Position numbers and translations under genes: made by a program
Part shown: piece by piece, positions 5,900 through 64,000 of the stretch
How the letters are laid out: the number at the start of each line of letters is the position of its first letter
How positions within the stretch are numbered: the first letter of the stretch is position 1
Virus genome (UHGV): UHGV-0179803
Strand: one strand, 5' to 3'
Length of the DNA stretch: 64,000 nucleotides
Source of the DNA: a virus
Notes under the pieces: generated by a model
Database searches by the model: none
What the model was told of the DNA's origin: nothing
The model's input: only the letters and a program-made list of their open reading frames with translations

Positions 5900-5975
5900 G
5901 CCCCGTTAGTTCAAATGGAAGAACAGTGGCCTTCTAAGCCATAGGTTACAGGTTCGAGTCCTGTACGGGGTGCCA
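5900..5975 (+). tRNA. tRNA-Arg (anticodon TCT)
   Basis: hand-folded cloverleaf: acceptor GCCCCGT/ACGGGGT, D-stem GTTC/GAAC, anticodon loop CTTCTAA, T-arm ACAGG-TTCGAGT-CCTGT, 3' GCCA. Confidence 0.8.
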
Positions 5976-6809: not shown

Positions 6810-7102
6810 GGTGGTTACTTGCATTAGCGATTGCACTCACGTTTTCTATGGCCCTGGTAGGTTGTAGCTCACCTAAAAGTACGCCAGTTACAGTTGCACC
6901 GCAGAAAGTTGAACAACTTGCTGTAGAGCCTCCTGCGGCAGCTATGATCCCACCAGCAATAGCTATCCCCTTGGTGAAAGGTGCACCAGATGCGGATAAC
7001 TCTGCAATTATGAGGCAGAACAATCTCTCCTGTAGCAATGATCGTGCCAAATTAATCATCTTGCAGGATTATGTAAAATCTTTATTCAATAAGGAGAATT
7101 AA
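6806..7102 (+). CDS. o-spanin (Rz1-like outer-membrane lipoprotein)
   Basis: signal peptide ending in lipobox LVGC, proline-rich mature part; immediately downstream of and overlapping the i-spanin gene. Confidence 0.6.
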   Translation: MRWLLALAIALTFSMALVGCSSPKSTPVTVAPQKVEQLAVEPPAAAMIPPAIAIPLVKGAPDADNSAIMRQNNLSCSNDRAKLIILQDYVKSLFNKEN

Positions 7103-8217
7103 TGGCTAAAATGTATGGCCCATGCTCCCGTAAACAACAAATGATTCTGGAAAATGATGCCGACTTCCTGATCATTGGTGGGGCAGCGGGTTGTTTGTCA
7201 ATGCGACATGAGGTGATGACACCTAACGGGTGGATCAGAATATCGGAATGGGATGGTCAAGATATCCTCCAGTTTGATAAAGAAACTGGTAAGGCCATGT
7301 TTATCCAGCCTGAAGAGTTTGTTAAGCTGGAATGCGACAAACTAACCAGGATTGTGCAGGATGGTATTTGTCAGGAATTATCCGACGAGCACACAGTTCT
7401 GTACGTCCCAGAAGACGGAACAGCTTACGGTACACTTAATTTCGGAGAAGTGGCTGAACAGTATGCTAACGGTGAGTTGGCAATGCGTATGCAGACCACG
7501 TTTGTGAACATGGGTGGTACTGGCCTTGGCATTTCTGACGAAGAGCTGAAAGAAAGGGCAAGATATTACAAATTCACAGATGAGTGGTATAATTGTGATC
7601 GTCGTCAGTTGTTGCAGATCTGGTATGAGATTTACCTGAACGGTAATGATCCCCATGCCTACGTTGTTCCAACGAAAGAACAGGCTGATTTCTTGCAATA
7701 CCTCGGATCATCTTTAGGTTTCAACGCACAGATCTTCTTCGAAGAAGGTTACAAAGTTGTGTTCTCTAATGAACGTGCAGGTACGATTGCTCTTAATAAC
7801 GATGCAACGTTCGAAGAGTTTGAGCCGGAAGATGGTTACAAATATTGTTTTGCTACCACAACAGGCTATTTTATCACCAGACTGGAAAACTGCATTGCAG
7901 TGACTGGTAACAGTGGTAAATCCTTTCTTCTACAGCTTCTCCCACTAAAGATGATAGATGACCCCAACACTTCTGTGGTGATGTTCCGTAGGACAACTCC
8001 ACAACTGGAAGGTGAAGGTGGTCTGTGGCCTAAAGCACTGAGTGTGTATCTGGATCTTCCTGAGTACATGAGGCCGAAATTCAGAGAGAAAGACCATAAG
8101 TTTACTTTTCCATATTATGATGCAAAGACGGGCAAATGGAATAAGAAAAGAGACGGAGCAGTAATCAAATACTGCCATATGGAATACGTCCAAGATAAGC
8201 TGAATCATCAAGGGTAA
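7102..8217 (+). CDS. terL: large terminase subunit, N-terminal (ATPase) part, carrying an in-frame intein-like insertion
   Basis: flanks of the insertion rejoin as IIGGAAG|SGKSFLL, a GxxxxGKS Walker A; the reading frame stops at 8217 where intron-like sequence begins. Confidence 0.65.
   Translation: MAKMYGPCSRKQQMILENDADFLIIGGAAGCLSMRHEVMTPNGWIRISEWDGQDILQFDKETGKAMFIQPEEFVKLECDKLTRIVQDGICQELSDEHTVLYVPEDGTAYGTLNFGEVAEQYANGELAMRMQTTFVNMGGTGLGISDEELKERARYYKFTDEWYNCDRRQLLQIWYEIYLNGNDPHAYVVPTKEQADFLQYLGSSLGFNAQIFFEEGYKVVFSNERAGTIALNNDATFEEFEPEDGYKYCFATTTGYFITRLENCIAVTGNSGKSFLLQLLPLKMIDDPNTSVVMFRRTTPQLEGEGGLWPKALSVYLDLPEYMRPKFREKDHKFTFPYYDAKTGKWNKKRDGAVIKYCHMEYVQDKLNHQG
7192..7911 (+). other. candidate intein (240 aa) inserted in the terminase P-loop
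   Basis: begins with Cys (CLSMRHEV...), ends with Asn followed by Ser (..IAVTGN|SGKS); removing it restores a canonical Walker A. Confidence 0.5.
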
Positions 8218-9454: not shown

Positions 9455-10534
9455 ATGAGGTCGAAATCGAAATACTCTTCACGGATGGTGATCAGCTGTA
9501 ACCCGGATTCTGAACACTATTTAGCCAAACTGGTTCGTTGGTGGCTTGACGACGAGGGCTACCCAGATGAAAGCAAGTGTGGCGTTAAGCGCTATTTCAT
9601 CCGTAGGGATGGGGAATTTATCTTCGGCGATACGCCAGAAGAGTTGATCGAGAAGTATACCTATGTTAACGGCAAAGGTGTTGAGATAATCCCAAAACCA
9701 CTCTCTATCGCTTTTATCGGTGCAACAATCCACGATAACCCCATCTGCTTGCGTGATAACCCAGAATATCTTGCATTCCTGGAAGGTCTGCCAGAGCTGG
9801 AAAAAGCACAACTCCTCTACGGTAACTGGTTCGCTAAGCCTGAAGGTGCAAACTATTTCAGTCGCACATTCTTGAAAGATGCGGATCATGTCCCCCTCGG
9901 AGCAGTTTCTGTAAGAGCATGGGATAAAGCTGGTACAGAACGTACCTCTGGCAACAAATTCCCCGACTATACAGCCAGTATCAAGGTCAGTAAGGATAGT
10001 GATGGTTACTACTACATCTCCGGTGACTATTGCCCTGAAAACGTAGATGATGGCAGATATTCTACGGGCTTGCACGGTAAGTTCTGCAAGAAAGCTGGGG
10101 AACGTGATGTTATTATCAAGAAACAGGCAGAGTTTGATGGTGAGGACTGCGTAATTGTCTTCTCTGTGGACCCCGGTCAGGCAGGTAAGAGTGAGTTTCT
10201 TACTTCATCTCGTAAACTTCTTGCCGGAGGGTTCAGGGTAGAAGAAGACCCAATGCCGTCTAACAAATCAAAACTCACCCGTTTCTCCCCGTTTGCCAAC
10301 CTTGCCCAACAAGGGATGGTGCGGCTTGTCCGGTCAAGTTTCGACCCGGATACACTGGAAGCATTTTTGACAGAGCTGGAGAAATTTAACGGCGAACGGT
10401 CAACCTTTAGCCGTAAAGATGATTGGGCTGACTCCATTGCTTCTGCAATTAACTACCTTGAAAAAGAGGAAGTTGCTATGCCATGTGTTATTCCGAAGAT
10501 TGTTTCACCCTCTATGTATAAGAGGATGATTTAA
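9455..10534 (+). CDS. terL: large terminase subunit, C-terminal part (nuclease domain exon)
   Basis: frame is open from 9332; contains ISCNPDSEHY, RAWDKAGT and DDWADSIASA acidic motifs expected of a terminase RNase-H-like nuclease domain; true 5' end depends on the splice junction. Confidence 0.65.
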   Translation: MRSKSKYSSRMVISCNPDSEHYLAKLVRWWLDDEGYPDESKCGVKRYFIRRDGEFIFGDTPEELIEKYTYVNGKGVEIIPKPLSIAFIGATIHDNPICLRDNPEYLAFLEGLPELEKAQLLYGNWFAKPEGANYFSRTFLKDADHVPLGAVSVRAWDKAGTERTSGNKFPDYTASIKVSKDSDGYYYISGDYCPENVDDGRYSTGLHGKFCKKAGERDVIIKKQAEFDGEDCVIVFSVDPGQAGKSEFLTSSRKLLAGGFRVEEDPMPSNKSKLTRFSPFANLAQQGMVRLVRSSFDPDTLEAFLTELEKFNGERSTFSRKDDWADSIASAINYLEKEEVAMPCVIPKIVSPSMYKRMI

Positions 10535-20970: not shown

Positions 20971-21000
20971 TTGACAAAAGTTGGTGTTTTGTGGTATAGT
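20971..21000 (+). promoter_or_regulatory. sigma70-like promoter with extended -10
   Basis: TTGACA-18 nt-TATAGT preceded by TGTGG. Confidence 0.5.
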
Positions 21001-21033
21001 TCCTTTGTGTTTAAAATTACTAGGAGTTTACAG

Positions 21034-22560
21034 ATGGCTGGAAAATGTTACACTAAAAAAGAATGGCTAACAGCTGTCTTCAAAGAAAACCCTGAGTTTG
21101 AAGAAATGTACGATTACAGTCAAACTGAGTACAAAGGCAGTAGAGAAAAAGTGAGCATTATTTGCAAAAAACATGGTGCGTTTTCTGTAGAAGCAAATGC
21201 TCATAGAAAAGGAGAGGGATGCAAAGAATGCTACCTTGAGCGTAAACGTGGAAACAAGGAAGAATTCGTTGAAAAAGCTAAAGAAGTGCATGGGGTGCGT
21301 TACAACTACTCTAAGGTTGTGTATAAAGACAGAGTGACAAAAGTAGATATCATCTGCCCTGATCACGGAGTGTTCTCACAAAAACCTAGCAAACATTTGA
21401 GAGGACAGGGCTGCCCCCATTGTGCTAACATGGCTCGTGGTAGAAAAAGAAGAAACTCTTTTGAGGAAGTAGTGGAACAGGCCAAAGAGGTCCACAAAGA
21501 TAAATACGTTTACAAAGGTATGTTTTACGATGAAAGGAAGAAAGGTATTCTTAATATTAAATGTTCAAGGTGTGGATCAGAGTTCCAACAACCTGTGAAA
21601 GACCATGTACACCAAAATCATGGGTGTAGACATTGTGCAAAACTAACCTCAAGAGTGGAAGAATCTGTCTTTGACTTCATAAAAACTATCTGCCCAGACG
21701 CGGAGCAGTCTGATCGCACTATCCTGGATGATGGCAAAGAGTTAGATATCTATGTCCCATCAAAGCGTGTGGCGATTGAAGTCAATGGTATCTTCTGGCA
21801 TGGAGACAATCATAAGCCTAGGGATTATCATTACAAAAAATGGTTAGCCTGTAAAGAGAAAGGTATTCGTCTGATCCAGATCACAGATTATGATTGGAAT
21901 AACAACCAAAAAGTGTTTAGCCAGTTGCTGGCTCATGCCTTGGGGTGCAATAGTGAGCGTAAAGTGAATGCTAGGGAATGCGAAGTGGTGCATCTCAAAT
22001 CAACAGAGTGCAAAGAGTTTTACAACGCTTACCACCCACAAGGCCATTCTCCTAACCCAATTAATCTGGCCTTGAAAACGAAAGAAGGGGAAATTGTAGC
22101 GATCATGAGCTTTGGTTATGGTAAAACTACAAGGGGTCAGGCCAGAGCTAACGGTACGACTAAAGCAACATGGGAGTTATCAAGATTTGCATCAAGCTGC
22201 TCTGTTCGTGGTGGGGCATCTCGACTGTTTAAAACGTTCATCAGAGAGAACAATCCAGAAGAGGTTAGCTCATTCAGCATGAATGACTACTTCGCTGGTG
22301 GGGTTTACGAAGTGTTAGGATTTGTTGCGGAGACGTATGGCAAACCAGACTACAGAGTGTTCCATCCGTTCAGCGGGTTACGCCACAAATCATACTGGCA
22401 ACGCCGTAATATCCCGAAACGTTTGAAAGAACTGGGTAAAGAAGAATTAAACTTTGACCCAGAAATTGATCAGCGTACAGAGCGGGAGATAGAGGATTTG
22501 GTTGGTGCTATCCGGTTGTGGGACAGCGGCAAGATCAAATGGGTATGGAAAGCTGAGTAA
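21034..22560 (+). CDS. free-standing putative endonuclease: triple zinc-ribbon N-terminus plus Vsr/DUF559-like nuclease domain
   Basis: three repeats of C-x2-HG-x-F...G-x-GC-x2-C; C-terminal DIYVPSKRVAIEVNGIFWHGDNH resembles the Vsr-type D..P...AI.V.G.FWHG motif; own promoter and RBS AGGAG. Confidence 0.5.
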   Translation: MAGKCYTKKEWLTAVFKENPEFEEMYDYSQTEYKGSREKVSIICKKHGAFSVEANAHRKGEGCKECYLERKRGNKEEFVEKAKEVHGVRYNYSKVVYKDRVTKVDIICPDHGVFSQKPSKHLRGQGCPHCANMARGRKRRNSFEEVVEQAKEVHKDKYVYKGMFYDERKKGILNIKCSRCGSEFQQPVKDHVHQNHGCRHCAKLTSRVEESVFDFIKTICPDAEQSDRTILDDGKELDIYVPSKRVAIEVNGIFWHGDNHKPRDYHYKKWLACKEKGIRLIQITDYDWNNNQKVFSQLLAHALGCNSERKVNARECEVVHLKSTECKEFYNAYHPQGHSPNPINLALKTKEGEIVAIMSFGYGKTTRGQARANGTTKATWELSRFASSCSVRGGASRLFKTFIRENNPEEVSSFSMNDYFAGGVYEVLGFVAETYGKPDYRVFHPFSGLRHKSYWQRRNIPKRLKELGKEELNFDPEIDQRTEREIEDLVGAIRLWDSGKIKWVWKAE

Positions 22561-22593: not shown

Positions 22594-22622
22594 TTGACAA
22601 AAAGTGAGTACAATGTTATAAT
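22594..22622 (+). promoter_or_regulatory. consensus sigma70 promoter
   Basis: TTGACA-17 nt-TATAAT, spacer ends in TGT. Confidence 0.6.
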
Positions 22623-24011: not shown

Positions 24012-24040
24012 TTGACAAAAAGAAAGTACAATGCTATAAT
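24012..24040 (+). promoter_or_regulatory. consensus sigma70 promoter
   Basis: TTGACAAAAAGAAAGTACAATGCTATAAT, near-identical to the element at 22594. Confidence 0.55.
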
Positions 24041-49237: not shown

Positions 49238-49268
49238 AGCCTCTCCTGCGGGAGAGGCTTTACTGTTT
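49238..49268 (+). terminator. hairpin (attenuator/terminator-like)
   Basis: AGCCTCTCCTGCGGGAGAGGCT followed by TTACTGTTT; weak T-tract. Confidence 0.35.
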
Positions 49269-49278
49269 GGAGAACACA

Positions 49279-59896: not shown

Positions 59897-60502
59897 TTAG
59901 TCAAATTGTAATATCAGATCGACCAGTTTACTTGGTTCGTTGATATACTCATCTTTACCGTATGGCACAGGTCTCATTTCGTGGATAGGCTGTTCTTCTA
60001 CGTACGGTCTGATAAATTCTGCCAGCACCAGTTCCACAACCCCTGGCCCACAAGGTGATTCCAGCATTCTCCGGTGGAGTTTGGGATCTCTCAGTGCCAG
60101 AAGTGGACCGTAACCATCCATTCTGCCATACAATAGATACTCCGCAGAGTGGTGGATGAAAGCCTTCTCGTAGCGTCTGCGTTGGTTTAAGGTCGCTATG
60201 ATTATCTCTGCATAGGCATCCTGTAGAGCCTTCTTAGCGTGTTGGATGTTGTTATCCCCAGACTCCAGTAAGCCTTCCAGGATTCTTACACGACTCATGT
60301 GGACCTGATTCTCACTGACGTGGGCGATAATATTCCCTGTCTGATCGAAGTTTTCCATCAGCCTCCACACGATGTTGACACTGCCTGTCTGGGATAATGA
60401 CTTGGCGTACCAGCCTTGCTTGTGGAAGTACCAGTCAGCGTCCTCCATCAGGATTTTACTGAAGTCTGCTTTCAGTTGTTCTTTGCTGTGCGGATCATTC
60501 AT
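59897..60502 (-). CDS. hypothetical protein
   Basis: start re-placed at MNDPHSK... (GGGAG 6 nt upstream), abutting the stop of the upstream gene. Confidence 0.4.
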   Translation of the reverse strand: MNDPHSKEQLKADFSKILMEDADWYFHKQGWYAKSLSQTGSVNIVWRLMENFDQTGNIIAHVSENQVHMSRVRILEGLLESGDNNIQHAKKALQDAYAEIIIATLNQRRRYEKAFIHHSAEYLLYGRMDGYGPLLALRDPKLHRRMLESPCGPGVVELVLAEFIRPYVEEQPIHEMRPVPYGKDEYINEPSKLVDLILQFD

Positions 60503-61088
60503 TGCCATCTCCCAACAATTGAAGCAGAAGGTTGATACCTTCGTTTGGGTCATCATCCTCACCGTAGTGTTTGGCAGACATTGCATAGCCTTCACCATCC
60601 ACATACTGTTTGATGTATTTGAACAGGCTCGAACGCAGCATATCCATCCCCATCGGATCTCGCAGTAAGCGATCCAACAGTTTTGGTGCACGTTTTTCCA
60701 TCACACAAGGGCCACCGTTATTGCCACAACCATTACGGTTAGTCAGGAGGTCAACTCCGAACTGTAGCAGCTCTTTCTTGTGCTTCTCGCGTTTTCTCCA
60801 GATCTTGACGTGCATTTCGCCATCAACATCGTGGACCATGTTGCGAAGATCACTTATGCTGGGGTGCTCATTGTTCTTCAAAGCCCTTATCATTACTTTA
60901 CACTTAGTAGTGTAAGTTTCTTCCCTGTAGTACCGTGGTACTGGGAAGATATACTTCTCGAATATCATCTTGAAGGCGTTGAAGCGAGAACTGGCAAAAT
61001 AATTATCCCAGTAGTCCTTCCACTCAAATTCAAGAAAAGTATCCAGATCCCTCTGGAGATTGTTAGTAAAAAATTCTACATTGCTCAT
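60495..61088 (-). CDS. hypothetical protein
   Basis: ORF track; 4-nt overlaps with both neighbours. Confidence 0.4.
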   Translation of the reverse strand: MSNVEFFTNNLQRDLDTFLEFEWKDYWDNYFASSRFNAFKMIFEKYIFPVPRYYREETYTTKCKVMIRALKNNEHPSISDLRNMVHDVDGEMHVKIWRKREKHKKELLQFGVDLLTNRNGCGNNGGPCVMEKRAPKLLDRLLRDPMGMDMLRSSLFKYIKQYVDGEGYAMSAKHYGEDDDPNEGINLLLQLLGDGNE

Positions 61089-61327
61089 AGCTCTACCACC
61101 GTACCTTCCAGGTCTTCTTCAATCAGGTCATCCAGCTTAACCACCTTGATAAGGCCACGACGGATGTACAGATCCATCATCTCACGATAGTTTTTGAATG
61201 GATCGTCACTGTTACTGACTACAACAACTTTATGGTCTTGACGAGCTTCTTGCCATACCAGACGGCAACGCATCAGGTGCCCCAGTACATCTTTATCCAT
61301 TTCTGGCTTACGTGCAAACATTATCAA
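61085..61327 (-). CDS. hypothetical protein
   Basis: ORF track; overlapping ATGA junctions with neighbours. Confidence 0.4.
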   Translation of the reverse strand: MIMFARKPEMDKDVLGHLMRCRLVWQEARQDHKVVVVSNSDDPFKNYREMMDLYIRRGLIKVVKLDDLIEEDLEGTVVEL

Positions 61328-61758
61328 TCCCCCGTAAAATATTCTTTAAGTTTTTCTGTTAAAAAGTTTTGTAATTCCTGCTCGTCGAGCTTCTCGTCAA
61401 AGTCAGCAGCAGCTGCCTCAACACACATATGATAGATCGCAATTTCAAGGTCGTCAAGCCCCAACATCAATTCGACCATCATATTTTCATCATCTGTTGG
61501 GTGAGCCGGATCAGAGATCATATCCATTGGTACGATGACTTTCCAGTCTTCTTTAGTCCCCACAGGACCTTGAATTTTACGGCTAATCTCTATCAGATGC
61601 TTGGTGTAAAAGGCTTCGTACTGAACAATCTCGTAGTTATTACGGTAGTAAACGTAGTCGAGGTAAGTACCCAGCCGAAGCTGGCATACTTCAACCCCAA
61701 ACCACTCCTTCTTCCACTGTTTTTCGCCTGAAGATTGGCATTGGCGTTTAGTCAGCAT
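61324..61758 (-). CDS. hypothetical protein
   Basis: ORF track; part of the same overlapping minus-strand operon. Confidence 0.4.
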   Translation of the reverse strand: MLTKRQCQSSGEKQWKKEWFGVEVCQLRLGTYLDYVYYRNNYEIVQYEAFYTKHLIEISRKIQGPVGTKEDWKVIVPMDMISDPAHPTDDENMMVELMLGLDDLEIAIYHMCVEAAAADFDEKLDEQELQNFLTEKLKEYFTGD

Positions 61759-61773
61759 GGCTGGGTTCTCCTG

Positions 61774-62052
61774 TTATTGACGAGCGTATCCGCAGAGGAC
61801 GATGGTTGCATTAATTTCTGTTGCAGATAAGTCCCCATCCATAATTTGTAAAGAGAAATCTTCCAGGTCTACAGTGTAGATGCCTCCGTCATAAGAGTTA
61901 TCCTCCATGATTAGCACGTTGCGTACTTCAGCAGCCACTATGATTTCTACAATCGTACCTGGTTTAAAATTTTTGAGAGGTTTGACTACAGGTTCAAGCT
62001 CTCTTAAAGATACAGATGTTGCCATAATGTGTCTCCTATTTAACGTTTTCAA
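61774..62052 (-). CDS. hypothetical protein
   Basis: ORF track. Confidence 0.35.
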   Translation of the reverse strand: MKTLNRRHIMATSVSLRELEPVVKPLKNFKPGTIVEIIVAAEVRNVLIMEDNSYDGGIYTVDLEDFSLQIMDGDLSATEINATIVLCGYARQ

Positions 62053-63487
62053 TCAAATCTATAGTTCTGCCAAAAGATGGCGTATAGTCTTTGTTACCAC
62101 CTTCTGTCCTAATCCAGAGCGTATTATACTTATCCCAACCGTTGCTGTCAACCTCTTTTTCAAAACCTGATTCAAGAAACAGGTCAGTAAAGATAATAAC
62201 ATCCTGAACATCAGACAGATGTTTATCCAGATATTCAAACACACAACCTGCACGAGTACCGAACGTAGACTTGATCTGGTAGTCTGGCATCTGTGCAATA
62301 TTCTGGTGAGTGTATACCTGAACATCACCAACTTCTGTTGACCAACAGAACATCGTAACTTTAAACTCTTTATACAGGCTGCACAACCCGCTGATTTCTG
62401 AAGTGATACGTTTCAGAGTCCGTGGAGAGATAGAGCCTGATACGTCGAATGCCACCACTATATCAATCGTTTTCTCCTGGTTGCGACCTGGGAGAATAAC
62501 AGACTGGCGATTGTTGATAGCCCCTCTGCTACGCAATGTGTGAGTTAAAGCACCAGAGCGACGGGCCGGACGACGATAAGTCATATCAGCTTTCCGGTGT
62601 GACAACATACGTTGACGAATCACATCCAGATAGTTGATGATAGGCTTATTGCGATTCTTGATCCACTCACGCACCTGTGCCGGACCTTCACCACCTGCCG
62701 CTTTCATAGCAGCTTCCATCATGTCACCAGAGTCCTGCATTGCTGCATCTTTCTCTGCCTGAGTCATTGCTGGTTGGTTGCCTTTTTCGTAGCCCATAGC
62801 TTCACTGAGGTTGTCAGACTGGCCTTGTCCGTCCCCCATGTGAGTATCTGTGGCTCGTAGACCACCGCCACTAGCTTTACCTGGTTGTTGCTGTTGCTGT
62901 TGTTGTCTTTCCAGGTCTGCATAAACTTTTTCAGTTATCCACCCGTGGTATTTCTTATCACAATAACAATATTCAAGAAATGCAAACGGCTGGCCTTTTT
63001 TCAGCTGTGTGCGAATCCCGTGTGGGAACATTGCACATGGCGGTTCGGCTAAATCTACCATCAGACCAGTATTAATAACGTGGTCAGCGGCCTGATTAAA
63101 CAGGTTGTGATCAGAGAAGGCTTTACCACGGCTGAGGTGATCAGCAATGATGTGACCTATCTCATGGCACAGGAGAAAAGCAACCTCTTTAAGCGTTTTA
63201 GGTGCATAGAAAGCGTCCAGCTGTTCTTTCATCTTATCATCGCACTTAGGCAGAATGATAGCACGGCGTTCCTGGCAAACACCTATGATGAACTCTGGAT
63301 TGTAGTAAATCCGCTTATGGTCTGTGGCGATAGTGTCACACCATGTGTGGTTCTCAACAAATTGTAAGCCTGACAGGAGCACACCGTAGAAGCTCAATCT
63401 TTCCATGAGCCACATGCGAGCACCCTGAAGCATACGTAGAGCTTCTGGTTTCTGTGCTAAAATCAGTTCTGAACTTCTTGCGTCCAC
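62036..63487 (-). CDS. vWA-domain protein with N-terminal HExxH metallopeptidase-like domain
   Basis: HEIGHIIADH (HExxH) in the N-terminal half; MIDAS-type DVSGS in VAFDVSGSISPRT in the C-terminal half; poly-Q linker. Confidence 0.6.
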   Translation of the reverse strand: MDARSSELILAQKPEALRMLQGARMWLMERLSFYGVLLSGLQFVENHTWCDTIATDHKRIYYNPEFIIGVCQERRAIILPKCDDKMKEQLDAFYAPKTLKEVAFLLCHEIGHIIADHLSRGKAFSDHNLFNQAADHVINTGLMVDLAEPPCAMFPHGIRTQLKKGQPFAFLEYCYCDKKYHGWITEKVYADLERQQQQQQQPGKASGGGLRATDTHMGDGQGQSDNLSEAMGYEKGNQPAMTQAEKDAAMQDSGDMMEAAMKAAGGEGPAQVREWIKNRNKPIINYLDVIRQRMLSHRKADMTYRRPARRSGALTHTLRSRGAINNRQSVILPGRNQEKTIDIVVAFDVSGSISPRTLKRITSEISGLCSLYKEFKVTMFCWSTEVGDVQVYTHQNIAQMPDYQIKSTFGTRAGCVFEYLDKHLSDVQDVIIFTDLFLESGFEKEVDSNGWDKYNTLWIRTEGGNKDYTPSFGRTIDLIENVK

Positions 63488-63538
63488 TACGATCCTCCAA
63501 AGGGGGCAAAAGCCCCCTCGTTGTTATTTTCTGCTATC

Positions 63539-63988
63539 TTACACCTTTTTAAAGATGTTTGCAAGCTCTGCCATCGTCATGTTAGTCGTTTTCATGAGGT
63601 CAGTCATCGCCTTTTCCATCACAGGTGTAACTACCATGAAGTTGCCTTTGACAAAACCTTTATCGCGATCAGCCACCAGGATAGATTTAAGGCCGTCACC
63701 CAGACGTTCACCAGTCAGTGCACAACATTTTTTCTGGTACACTTGTTTGAACTGTCCGAATGTCAGATCTACTTTCATGCCTATATCATAGAAGACCTGA
63801 CAGTAGAAAGCGTAAGCCTGAGCAATAGCCACATCTGGTGGTAATGCCTGAGGTAGCGGTTTAGGCTCTTCAGGAGCGTCTGTACGGTCCTCAACAACTT
63901 CGGCTTGTACTTCTTCAACTTCAGCCGTTTCTTCAACCACAGGCTCACTCATGATGTTCCTGACATGTTTTTCAGCACGTTTGTCCAT
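63539..63988 (-). CDS. hypothetical protein (frame may extend past the window edge)
   Basis: ORF track; acidic N-terminus; upstream sequence leaves the window. Confidence 0.35.
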   Translation of the reverse strand: MDKRAEKHVRNIMSEPVVEETAEVEEVQAEVVEDRTDAPEEPKPLPQALPPDVAIAQAYAFYCQVFYDIGMKVDLTFGQFKQVYQKKCCALTGERLGDGLKSILVADRDKGFVKGNFMVVTPVMEKAMTDLMKTTNMTMAELANIFKKV

Positions 63989-64000
63989 GAACTCACGTAA

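Follow-up and report, generated by a model that had tools for sequence, protein, structure and literature searches.

Background

[quoted passage not shown] In the group 2.2 (RaK2-like) jumbo phages, Iyer et al. (2021, Viruses 13:63, PMC7824862) described a MoxR ATPase together with a vWA co-chaperone that is fused to an N-terminal metallopeptidase, and gp24 and gp25 of phage N4, a pair of the same kind, are counted as core genes of the N4-like phages (PMC7650795, PMC2784036). Phage rV5, whose pair is gp004 and gp012, possesses bidirectional sigma-70 promoters, a transcription unit of genes 11-26 that begins with an Srd-like gene, gp011 being described as an Srd homologue, and late genes with a T4-late-like motif (PMC3606486). 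Here we describe a gene of this family at positions 62036-63487 (minus strand) of a stretch of 64,000 nucleotides of the virus genome UHGV-0179803, together with its putative ATPase partner. The whole stretch that was analysed is hereafter called the window.

The gene is a member of a catalogued phage family, whose association with an ATPase of MoxR type in phages is already in the literature. A single further instance adds little, the family having Pfam and PHROG entries and being annotated in hundreds of phage genomes. The gene pair is core to the N4-like phages, and several unrelated lineages of large phages have kept it. What the present analysis contributes is a quantified linkage of the two genes, which holds in 51 of 56 loci, and a list of conserved residues that includes a loop histidine and a basic RRPxRR segment. 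Moreover, in three lineages the pair sits in early/middle modules and not in morphogenesis modules, an arrangement that speaks against the one function proposed in print so far.

The gene encodes a vWA domain fused to a putative metallopeptidase domain

The gene is an uninterrupted open reading frame (ORF) of 483 amino acids in the N4 gp25 / rV5 gp012 family, with a GTG start at 63487 and, 6 nt 5' of it, a GGAGG that reads as a Shine-Dalgarno sequence (63494-63498, minus strand). Homologues from isolated phages align with the protein over residues 1-483, and since they align from residue 1 the GTG start is correct. In a Pfam scan, the protein matched DUF2201_N (PF13203, putative metallopeptidase domain) with 107 bits against a curated cut-off of 23.2 (E 1.7e-30), the model spanning residues 98-334, and C-terminal to it DUF2201 (PF09967, VWA-like) with 42.9 bits against a cut-off of 26.4 (E 6.2e-11) at residues 343-478. 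Among the PHROG families, it matched phrog_1314 (E 1.8e-109). A preliminary description, made from the sequence alone, had read the ORF as a vWA-HExxH fusion on the basis of its HEIGHIIADH and DVSGS motifs and had proposed profile searches for both domains; the motifs are present, and the two domains were matched well above their cut-offs.

The HEIGHIIADH sequence (63137-63166, minus strand) is an HExxHxxxxH motif at residues 108-117 (H108, E109, H112 and H117), lies on a helix of residues 99-117 and represents a putative catalytic metal site. A further candidate metal ligand, which would be aspzincin-like, is D135 (63083-63085, minus strand) in an NxAxDxxIN motif. The vWA-like domain (62054-62461, minus strand) carries a complete MIDAS, consisting of D348-x-S350-x-S352, T411 and D435, with DVSGS at residues 348-352 (62432-62446, minus strand).

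To place these residues in the family, 1.84 billion cluster representatives were scanned with HMMER, which yielded 3,791 relatives at E <= 1e-3, and conservation was counted in an alignment of 167 relatives, N4 gp25 among them. Within the HExxHxxxxH motif, H108 is present in 162, E109 in 154, H112 in 161 and H117 in 148 of the 167 sequences, and D135 in 165 (it is invariant in another alignment). Of the MIDAS residues, D348, S350 and S352 are present without exception, whereas 160 sequences have T411 and 165 have D435. A regular-expression count over family representatives found HExxH in 151/165 and DxSxS in 165/165. Judged by these alignments, the HExxH and MIDAS motifs are not chance occurrences.

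Two further segments deserve mention. The first is a disordered loop rich in Q and G (about residues 193-224; 62816-62911, minus strand), in which a Q7-P-G-K-A-S-G3 run begins at residue 194 and residues 201-224 have a predicted local distance difference test (pLDDT) score below 50; the loop carries indels even in comparison with a 97%-identical relative. It had been taken for a linker between the two domains, a view that does not hold, as the stretch lies inside the DUF2201_N span and the vWA fold begins near residue 335, about 110 residues further on. Within this disordered loop, H216 (62840-62842, minus strand) is kept in 159/167 family sequences, N4 gp25 being among the few that lack it, and might act either as a metal ligand or as a latency switch. 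The second segment is the basic RRPxRR stretch R305-R310 (62558-62575, minus strand) just N-terminal to the vWA domain, in which 154 of the 167 sequences have R or K at the position of R309 and 155 have either residue at that of R310. Phage N4 gp25 has RPNRR at the equivalent place, and the stretch is of low confidence in the structure model; contact with the ATPase and processing are candidate roles for it.

The AlphaFold2 model of the whole protein has a pLDDT of 81.7. Because fold searches with the whole protein were dominated by the vWA domain, residues 1-335 were modelled separately. The vWA domain model matches the VWA domain of NorD (9qh6, 9qhd) and the MIDAS domains of MDN1/Rea1. The N-terminal model gives weak zincin-like fold matches, which include the zincin-like structure 3e11, peptidyl-Lys metalloendopeptidase, Wss1, abylysin, selecase, BlaR1 and HtpX. 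H117 and D135, both conserved, are candidates for the third metal ligand. Fold and motifs thus fit a hydrolase of the zincin type, and peptidase activity is predicted on that basis. A sequence search of the PDB, run both with the protein alone and with a profile of its family, returned marginal integrin I-domain matches only and no solved close relative. An NCBIfam search gave nothing useful, and among the PADLOC defence models the vWA protein had no match and the ATPase described below only a P-loop-level match (E 5.5e-4).

A P-loop AAA+ ATPase gene lies beyond the window end

An exact protein look-up led to a phage contig of 139,523 bp in an ENA metagenome assembly (ERZ1034815 NODE_8). The locus fetched from this parent contig (L002) shares 11,965 nt with the window, all of them identical, and reaches 9.5 kb past position 64000. 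The gene calls of the parent contig include a P-loop AAA+ ATPase of 397 amino acids at L002:5237-6430 (minus strand), which in window terms is 67058-68251 (plus strand). Its start is separated by 3.57 kb from that of the vWA gene and by 3.06 kb from the window end, and the two genes are divergent on opposite strands. An AAA+ partner just beyond the window end had been anticipated in the preliminary description, and the presence of this gene, combined with the profile support for both domains, supports the interpretation given there.

The ATPase has a Walker A motif (GSPGVGKS) and a Walker B motif (ILLDE), is 72% identical to a protein of Vequintavirus phages that is annotated 'MoxR ATPase', and matches phrog_1297 ('ATPase', E 3.8e-101). 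AAA_3, which is the MoxR family proper, and AAA_5 occur in most of the homologues that it finds with E values of 1e-37 to 1e-44, and one of these bears the name 'MoxR family ATPase'; remote homologues also carry bpMoxR. In an alignment of 36 ATPase sequences, AAA_3 and AAA_5 are each matched by 15 members, and G37/K40, D109/E110, N147 and N164/R165 are invariant. The profile of this alignment matches the AAA modules of midasin at E 1e-19, and not RavA, CbbQ or NorQ. The C-terminal part of about 200 residues is helical and without a Pfam match. By way of these relatives, that is transitively, the ATPase is assigned to the MoxR/midasin (AAA_3/AAA_5) class as a diverged member.

An ORF of 83 amino acids (L002:6430-6681, minus strand), which matches phrog_13164, overlaps the ATPase gene with its last 1 nt. 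In rV5 it corresponds to gp005, which is annotated 'ATPase'; the ORF could encode a small accessory subunit or be a mis-split N-terminal extension.

The two genes are linked across loci

Profiles of both proteins were run on 56 loci, comprising two public phage records/contigs, 39 IMG/VR loci and 14 GTDB genome contigs. An ATPase homologue was found at most 6.5 kb from the vWA gene in 51 of these 56. In 30 of the 51 linked loci, which belong to more distant relatives, the ATPase gene is directly upstream on the same strand. This arrangement, with the two genes adjacent as in N4 (gp24-gp25) and Cronobacter phage CR9, looks like an ancestral two-gene operon. In the other 21, which form the clade that holds rV5-like phages, PVP-SE1-like phages and the window, the ATPase gene lies 3.5-6 kb upstream on the opposite strand. 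Five loci are without an ATPase, of which three are too short to show one, one is a marginal match and one (L011) appears to be a genuine exception.

The neighbours at the bacterial loci, which come from metagenome-assembled genomes, include thymidylate synthase and many small co-oriented ORFs, and these contigs may themselves be viral. Among GenBank phages, 516 records contain the vWA protein and 813 the ATPase, with exactly 118 records at 60-80% identity for each.

Genomic context and proposed function

The vWA gene belongs to a cluster of small genes on the minus strand that lies beside tRNA genes. Upstream of it and co-oriented lies the 3' part (63539-64000, minus strand; the last 153 codons in the window) of a gene for an Srd-like 'anti-sigma' protein of 344 amino acids in full, a homologue of rV5 gp011. 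The full protein matches phrog_3118 (E 8e-90) and phrog_1400 (Srd, E 7.6e-13). Beyond this gene, a divergent intergenic region of 137 nt holds promoter-like sites on both strands, and past it, on the opposite strand, follow six genes (298, 92, 92, 88, 122 and 83 amino acids), the gene for the 397-amino acid ATPase, a gene of 122 amino acids, rIIA, rIIB and a PIF1-type helicase gene. The late module of the window, in which the large terminase is split and which also holds the genes for portal, major capsid and sheath, is on the plus strand at about 7-55 kb, its head module at about 7-16 kb, and the vWA gene lies outside it. In N4, the pair is found in a left-hand block with the RNA polymerase II gene gp16, dCTP deaminase, rIIA/rIIB, helicase and DNA polymerase. 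This block is the middle-gene region of N4.

We propose that the window protein acts as the vWA adaptor in a phage AAA+ machine made up of two proteins; it is homologous to N4 gp25, which has gp24 as its ATPase, and to rV5 gp012, which has gp004. The simplest view is that the mechanism of the characterised pairs, with NorQ/NorD as precedent, operates here with a hydrolytic step added. The C-terminal vWA domain would hold a divalent cation in its MIDAS and capture a target via an acidic side chain of that target. A hexamer of the MoxR/midasin-class ATPase would dock on the adaptor and, by ATP hydrolysis, remodel the bound target, and the N-terminal zincin-like HExxH domain would cleave either the target or the adaptor itself. 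The target would most likely be a host protein or a phage non-structural protein that is acted upon during takeover or replication, and not a virion component; an early or middle non-structural target is favoured because the pair appears to lie in a sigma-70-driven module of early/middle type, with the Srd-like gene, rIIA/rIIB and the helicase. As an overall explanation, the vWA adaptor of an AAA+ protease machine with an early/middle non-structural target is the one to which we incline, with a confidence slightly above even.

Several points weigh against this explanation. The assignment of the ATPase to its class is transitive and not direct, and its own Pfam matches are sub-threshold (bpMoxR, E 0.0059). 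The exception among the linked loci, L011 (IMGVR_UViG_3300045988_163358), holds a full-length relative of 44% identity and has no ATPase within 10 kb on either side, and in the lineage of the window itself the vWA and ATPase genes are not in one operon. In the secondary-structure string of the predicted vWA model there is no obvious protruding hairpin that could serve as a pore-inserting finger. The early/middle timing is suggested by gene position and promoter-like motifs. Finally, the literature on CRISPRi-ART, on rV5 and phAPEC6 proteomics and on MoxR in combination with phages held no phenotype, substrate or activity for the family; as no experimental work turned up there, the function in a phage is still as unclear as it was first called.

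The alternative that survives best, although we regard it as unlikely, is that the same machine acts late, as a morphogenesis chaperone and maturation protease that handles virion structural proteins during head or tail assembly and trimming. Such a role in virion assembly was proposed by Iyer et al. 2021 for the jumbo-phage pair, by analogy with the MoxR (p618) and vWA (p892) proteins of Acidianus two-tailed virus (PMC7824862), and the core status of the pair in N4-like phages (PMC7650795) is as expected of an essential assembly factor. Moreover, no canonical prohead protease was found among the scanned ORFs of the head module, where an ORF of 351 amino acids between portal and capsid matched only phrog_2970, a family of unknown function. 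Gene context speaks against it: in rV5-like phages, in N4 and in the window the genes are outside the late module, among the Srd-like gene, rIIA/rIIB, helicase and dCTP deaminase, and the rV5 unit is fronted by an annotated sigma-70 promoter, whereas the late genes of rV5 have the T4-late-like motif (PMC3606486). Neither gp012 nor gp004 is among the rV5 virion proteins named in the text of that paper, though a chaperone need not be packaged. Membership in the prohead maturation proteases, whose genes lie in the head module between those for portal and major capsid and whose fold is that of a serine or herpesvirus-like protease, was considered separately and rejected, as the head module is on the plus strand at about 7-16 kb and the vWA gene on the minus strand at 62-63.5 kb in an early-type cluster, and the N-terminal fold appears to be zincin-like.

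A bolder proposal, which we consider a little less probable again, holds that the pair is a widespread and so far unrecognised early host-takeover or counter-defence machine, in which a protease that is targeted by its MIDAS and driven by ATP destroys one host protein and H216 acts as a latency switch. The prey could, for instance, be a factor of defence or stress response that exposes an acidic motif, and H216 would sit on the catalytic metal until the loop is drawn off by the ATPase. The pair is conserved from N4-like podophages via rV5-like myophages to RaK2-like jumbo phages, and the proximity to rIIA/rIIB in N4 and in the lineage of the window could reflect a shared role against abortive infection.

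It is improbable that the pair is a metal-handling chaperone in the manner of NorQ/NorD, CoxD/CoxE, CobS/CobT or BchI/BchD, which would insert or remove a cofactor metal and in which the HExxH segment would be a metal-binding or otherwise non-proteolytic module. The HExxH glutamate, the general base for hydrolysis, is kept in 154/167 relatives, all other fold matches of the N-terminal domain are peptidases, and no candidate metalloenzyme client is consistently adjacent. The reading as HNH endonuclease or as anti-sigma factor, which follows the label 'HNH endonuclease' on phrog_1314 and records that call the orthologue either name, is almost certainly wrong, given that a Pfam scan to E 0.1 found no HNH or other nuclease family and assigned the two protein halves to DUF2201_N and DUF2201, that fold searches gave VWA and zincin-like structures only, and that the 'anti-sigma' name belongs to the neighbouring Srd-like gene. 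Both labels look like annotation carry-over, and this mis-annotation of the vWA-metallopeptidase family is systematic, as 'HNH endonuclease' (phrog_1314; RefSeq records of rV5, N4, PVP-SE1 and CR9) or as 'anti-sigma factor'.

Other features of the neighbourhood

The spacer of 51 nt between the Srd-like gene and the vWA gene contains a GC-rich hairpin, AGGGGGC-UUUU-GCCCCCU, with a stem of 7-8 bp (63501-63518, minus strand), which abuts the ribosome-binding site of the vWA gene. The region folds at -19.8 kcal/mol with a z score of -1.7, and only 3 U follow the stem. In view of this z score and the short U-tract we do not claim the hairpin as a terminator; at best it would be a weak one.

A perfect sigma-70 consensus (TTGACA-17-TATAAT, 12/12 positions) is located in the 3' end of the vWA gene (62123-62151, minus strand), about 100 nt before the next start codon and facing the small genes downstream, which may therefore have their own promoter. 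The homologous position in a Vequintavirus scores 10/12. In the window, perfect sites of this type (TTGACA-N16-18-TATAAT) occur four times, against 0.03 expected by chance; the others are at 22594-22622 (plus), 24012-24040 (plus) and 55531-55558 (minus). The sites at 22.6 and 24.0 kb have a nearly identical spacer.

Five small genes follow the vWA gene on the minus strand between 59897 and 62025, namely 61774-62025 (83 amino acids), 61324-61758 (144), 61085-61321 (78), 60495-61088 (197) and 59897-60502 (201). According to the gene calls of the parent contig and a direct check, the five junctions after the vWA gene measure +10, +15, +2, -4 and -8 nt. The preliminary description had these five genes following with overlapping stop and start codons; they do follow, packed on one strand, and such overlaps occur in only two of the five junctions. 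Likewise, the minus-strand operon described there is borne out as far as the tight packing goes, but the cluster has an internal perfect sigma-70 promoter and the ATPase gene is on the opposite strand.

The PHROG matches of the small genes are to families of unknown function, and the genes are syntenic with rV5 gp017-gp019. For the 'tail protein' label that the gene of 144 amino acids would inherit (phrog_6790, rV5 gp017) no support was found, the protein being small and acidic and encoded in an early-type cluster. The last two genes, 60495-61088 and 59897-60502 (minus strand), have 8 nt in common and are paralogues that have diverged to 22% identity (E 4e-09). Each of them matches phrog_12232, the rV5 gp019 family, and the arrangement looks like a tandem duplication relative to rV5.

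Just downstream of the small genes is a cluster of tRNA genes for Met-CAT, Thr-TGT and Arg-CCT (58080-58323, minus strand), and a fourth tRNA gene, Arg-TCT, is near the other window end (5900-5975, plus strand). Between the tRNA cluster and a plus-strand ORF of 1,939 amino acids (49267-55086), an ORF of 527 amino acids (56013-57596, minus strand) matches phrog_17426 ('adhesin') and probably encodes a receptor-binding or fibre protein; the parent-contig call at this place is 523 amino acids (56013-57584) with the Pfam domain YadA_anchor. The large terminase is split over the ORFs 7102-8217 and 9455-10534 (both plus strand), which match consecutive parts of phrog_979 and are separated by about 1.2 kb, suggesting insertion of an intron, an intein or a homing element. 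An ORF of 529 amino acids at 20971-22560 is HNH/homing-endonuclease-like.

Comparison with known systems

Like the cellular pairs NorQ/NorD, CbbQ/CbbO and RavA/ViaA and like midasin, the phage pair combines an AAA+ ATPase assigned to the AAA_3/AAA_5 class with a vWA domain with an intact MIDAS. In contrast to the phage protein, those cellular vWA partners lack a peptidase domain; their roles are in the insertion of cofactors, the reactivation of enzymes or the assembly of ribosomes. With about 150 residues, the vWA domain of the phage protein is also minimal, and, unlike in the cellular MoxR-vWA pairs, a pore-inserting finger was not identified in it.

Among phages, the RaK2-like, PA5oct-like and XbC2 jumbo phages have homologues of both proteins of the window genome at about 28-30% identity. 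In jumbo phage XbC2 the two genes are adjacent on one strand, whereas the pair of the window genome is divergent, and the virion-assembly role proposed for the jumbo-phage pair is unsupported by the gene context found here.

The closest sequenced relatives are the Vequintavirinae, with rV5 gp012/gp004, in which the vWA protein is 61% identical over 100% of its length and the ATPase 72%. Examples of orthologues are bas58_0055 ('putative metallopeptidase') and bas58_0063 ('MoxR ATPase') of phage HeinrichReichert; in GenBank, the vWA protein of close relatives is named 'putative metallopeptidase' or 'VWA-like domain containing protein' and the ATPase 'MoxR ATPase'. A megablast search of 61000-64000 against phage genomes gave no match. 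Based on the 61% identity and this lack of a match at the nucleotide level, the contig represents a distinct uncultured lineage that is related to the Vequintavirinae. The layout is shared, with the Srd-like gene, the vWA gene and small genes in one unit and the ATPase gene divergent near rIIA/rIIB. The small downstream genes differ from those of rV5 in number and identity, the window having two diverged paralogues of the rV5 gp019 family.

The homologues in N4-like phages are more distant, with about 22-25% identity to the window protein in tblastn. N4 gp25, the family's best-known member, also consists of DUF2201_N and DUF2201, matches end to end (E 3.1e-87 and 1.4e-46) and shares the HExxHxxxxH, NxAxDxxIN, RPxRR and DxSGS motifs. 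With 483 against 380 amino acids, the window protein is about 100 residues longer, with an extra helical insert at about residues 70-100 and a longer Q/G-rich loop, and it has H216, which N4 gp25 lacks. The ATPase gene is adjacent in N4, whereas it lies 3.57 kb away on the opposite strand in the window genome. As in the window genome, the vWA gene of N4 has an ATPase partner, gp24, and a neighbourhood with rIIA, rIIB and a helicase: in L002:168-6430 (minus strand) and in the N4 locus (L058:3939-16277) alike, the ATPase and vWA genes are a few genes from these three. At the level of gene order, this proximity is a module-level synteny that is conserved between a podophage family and the rV5-like myophage lineage.

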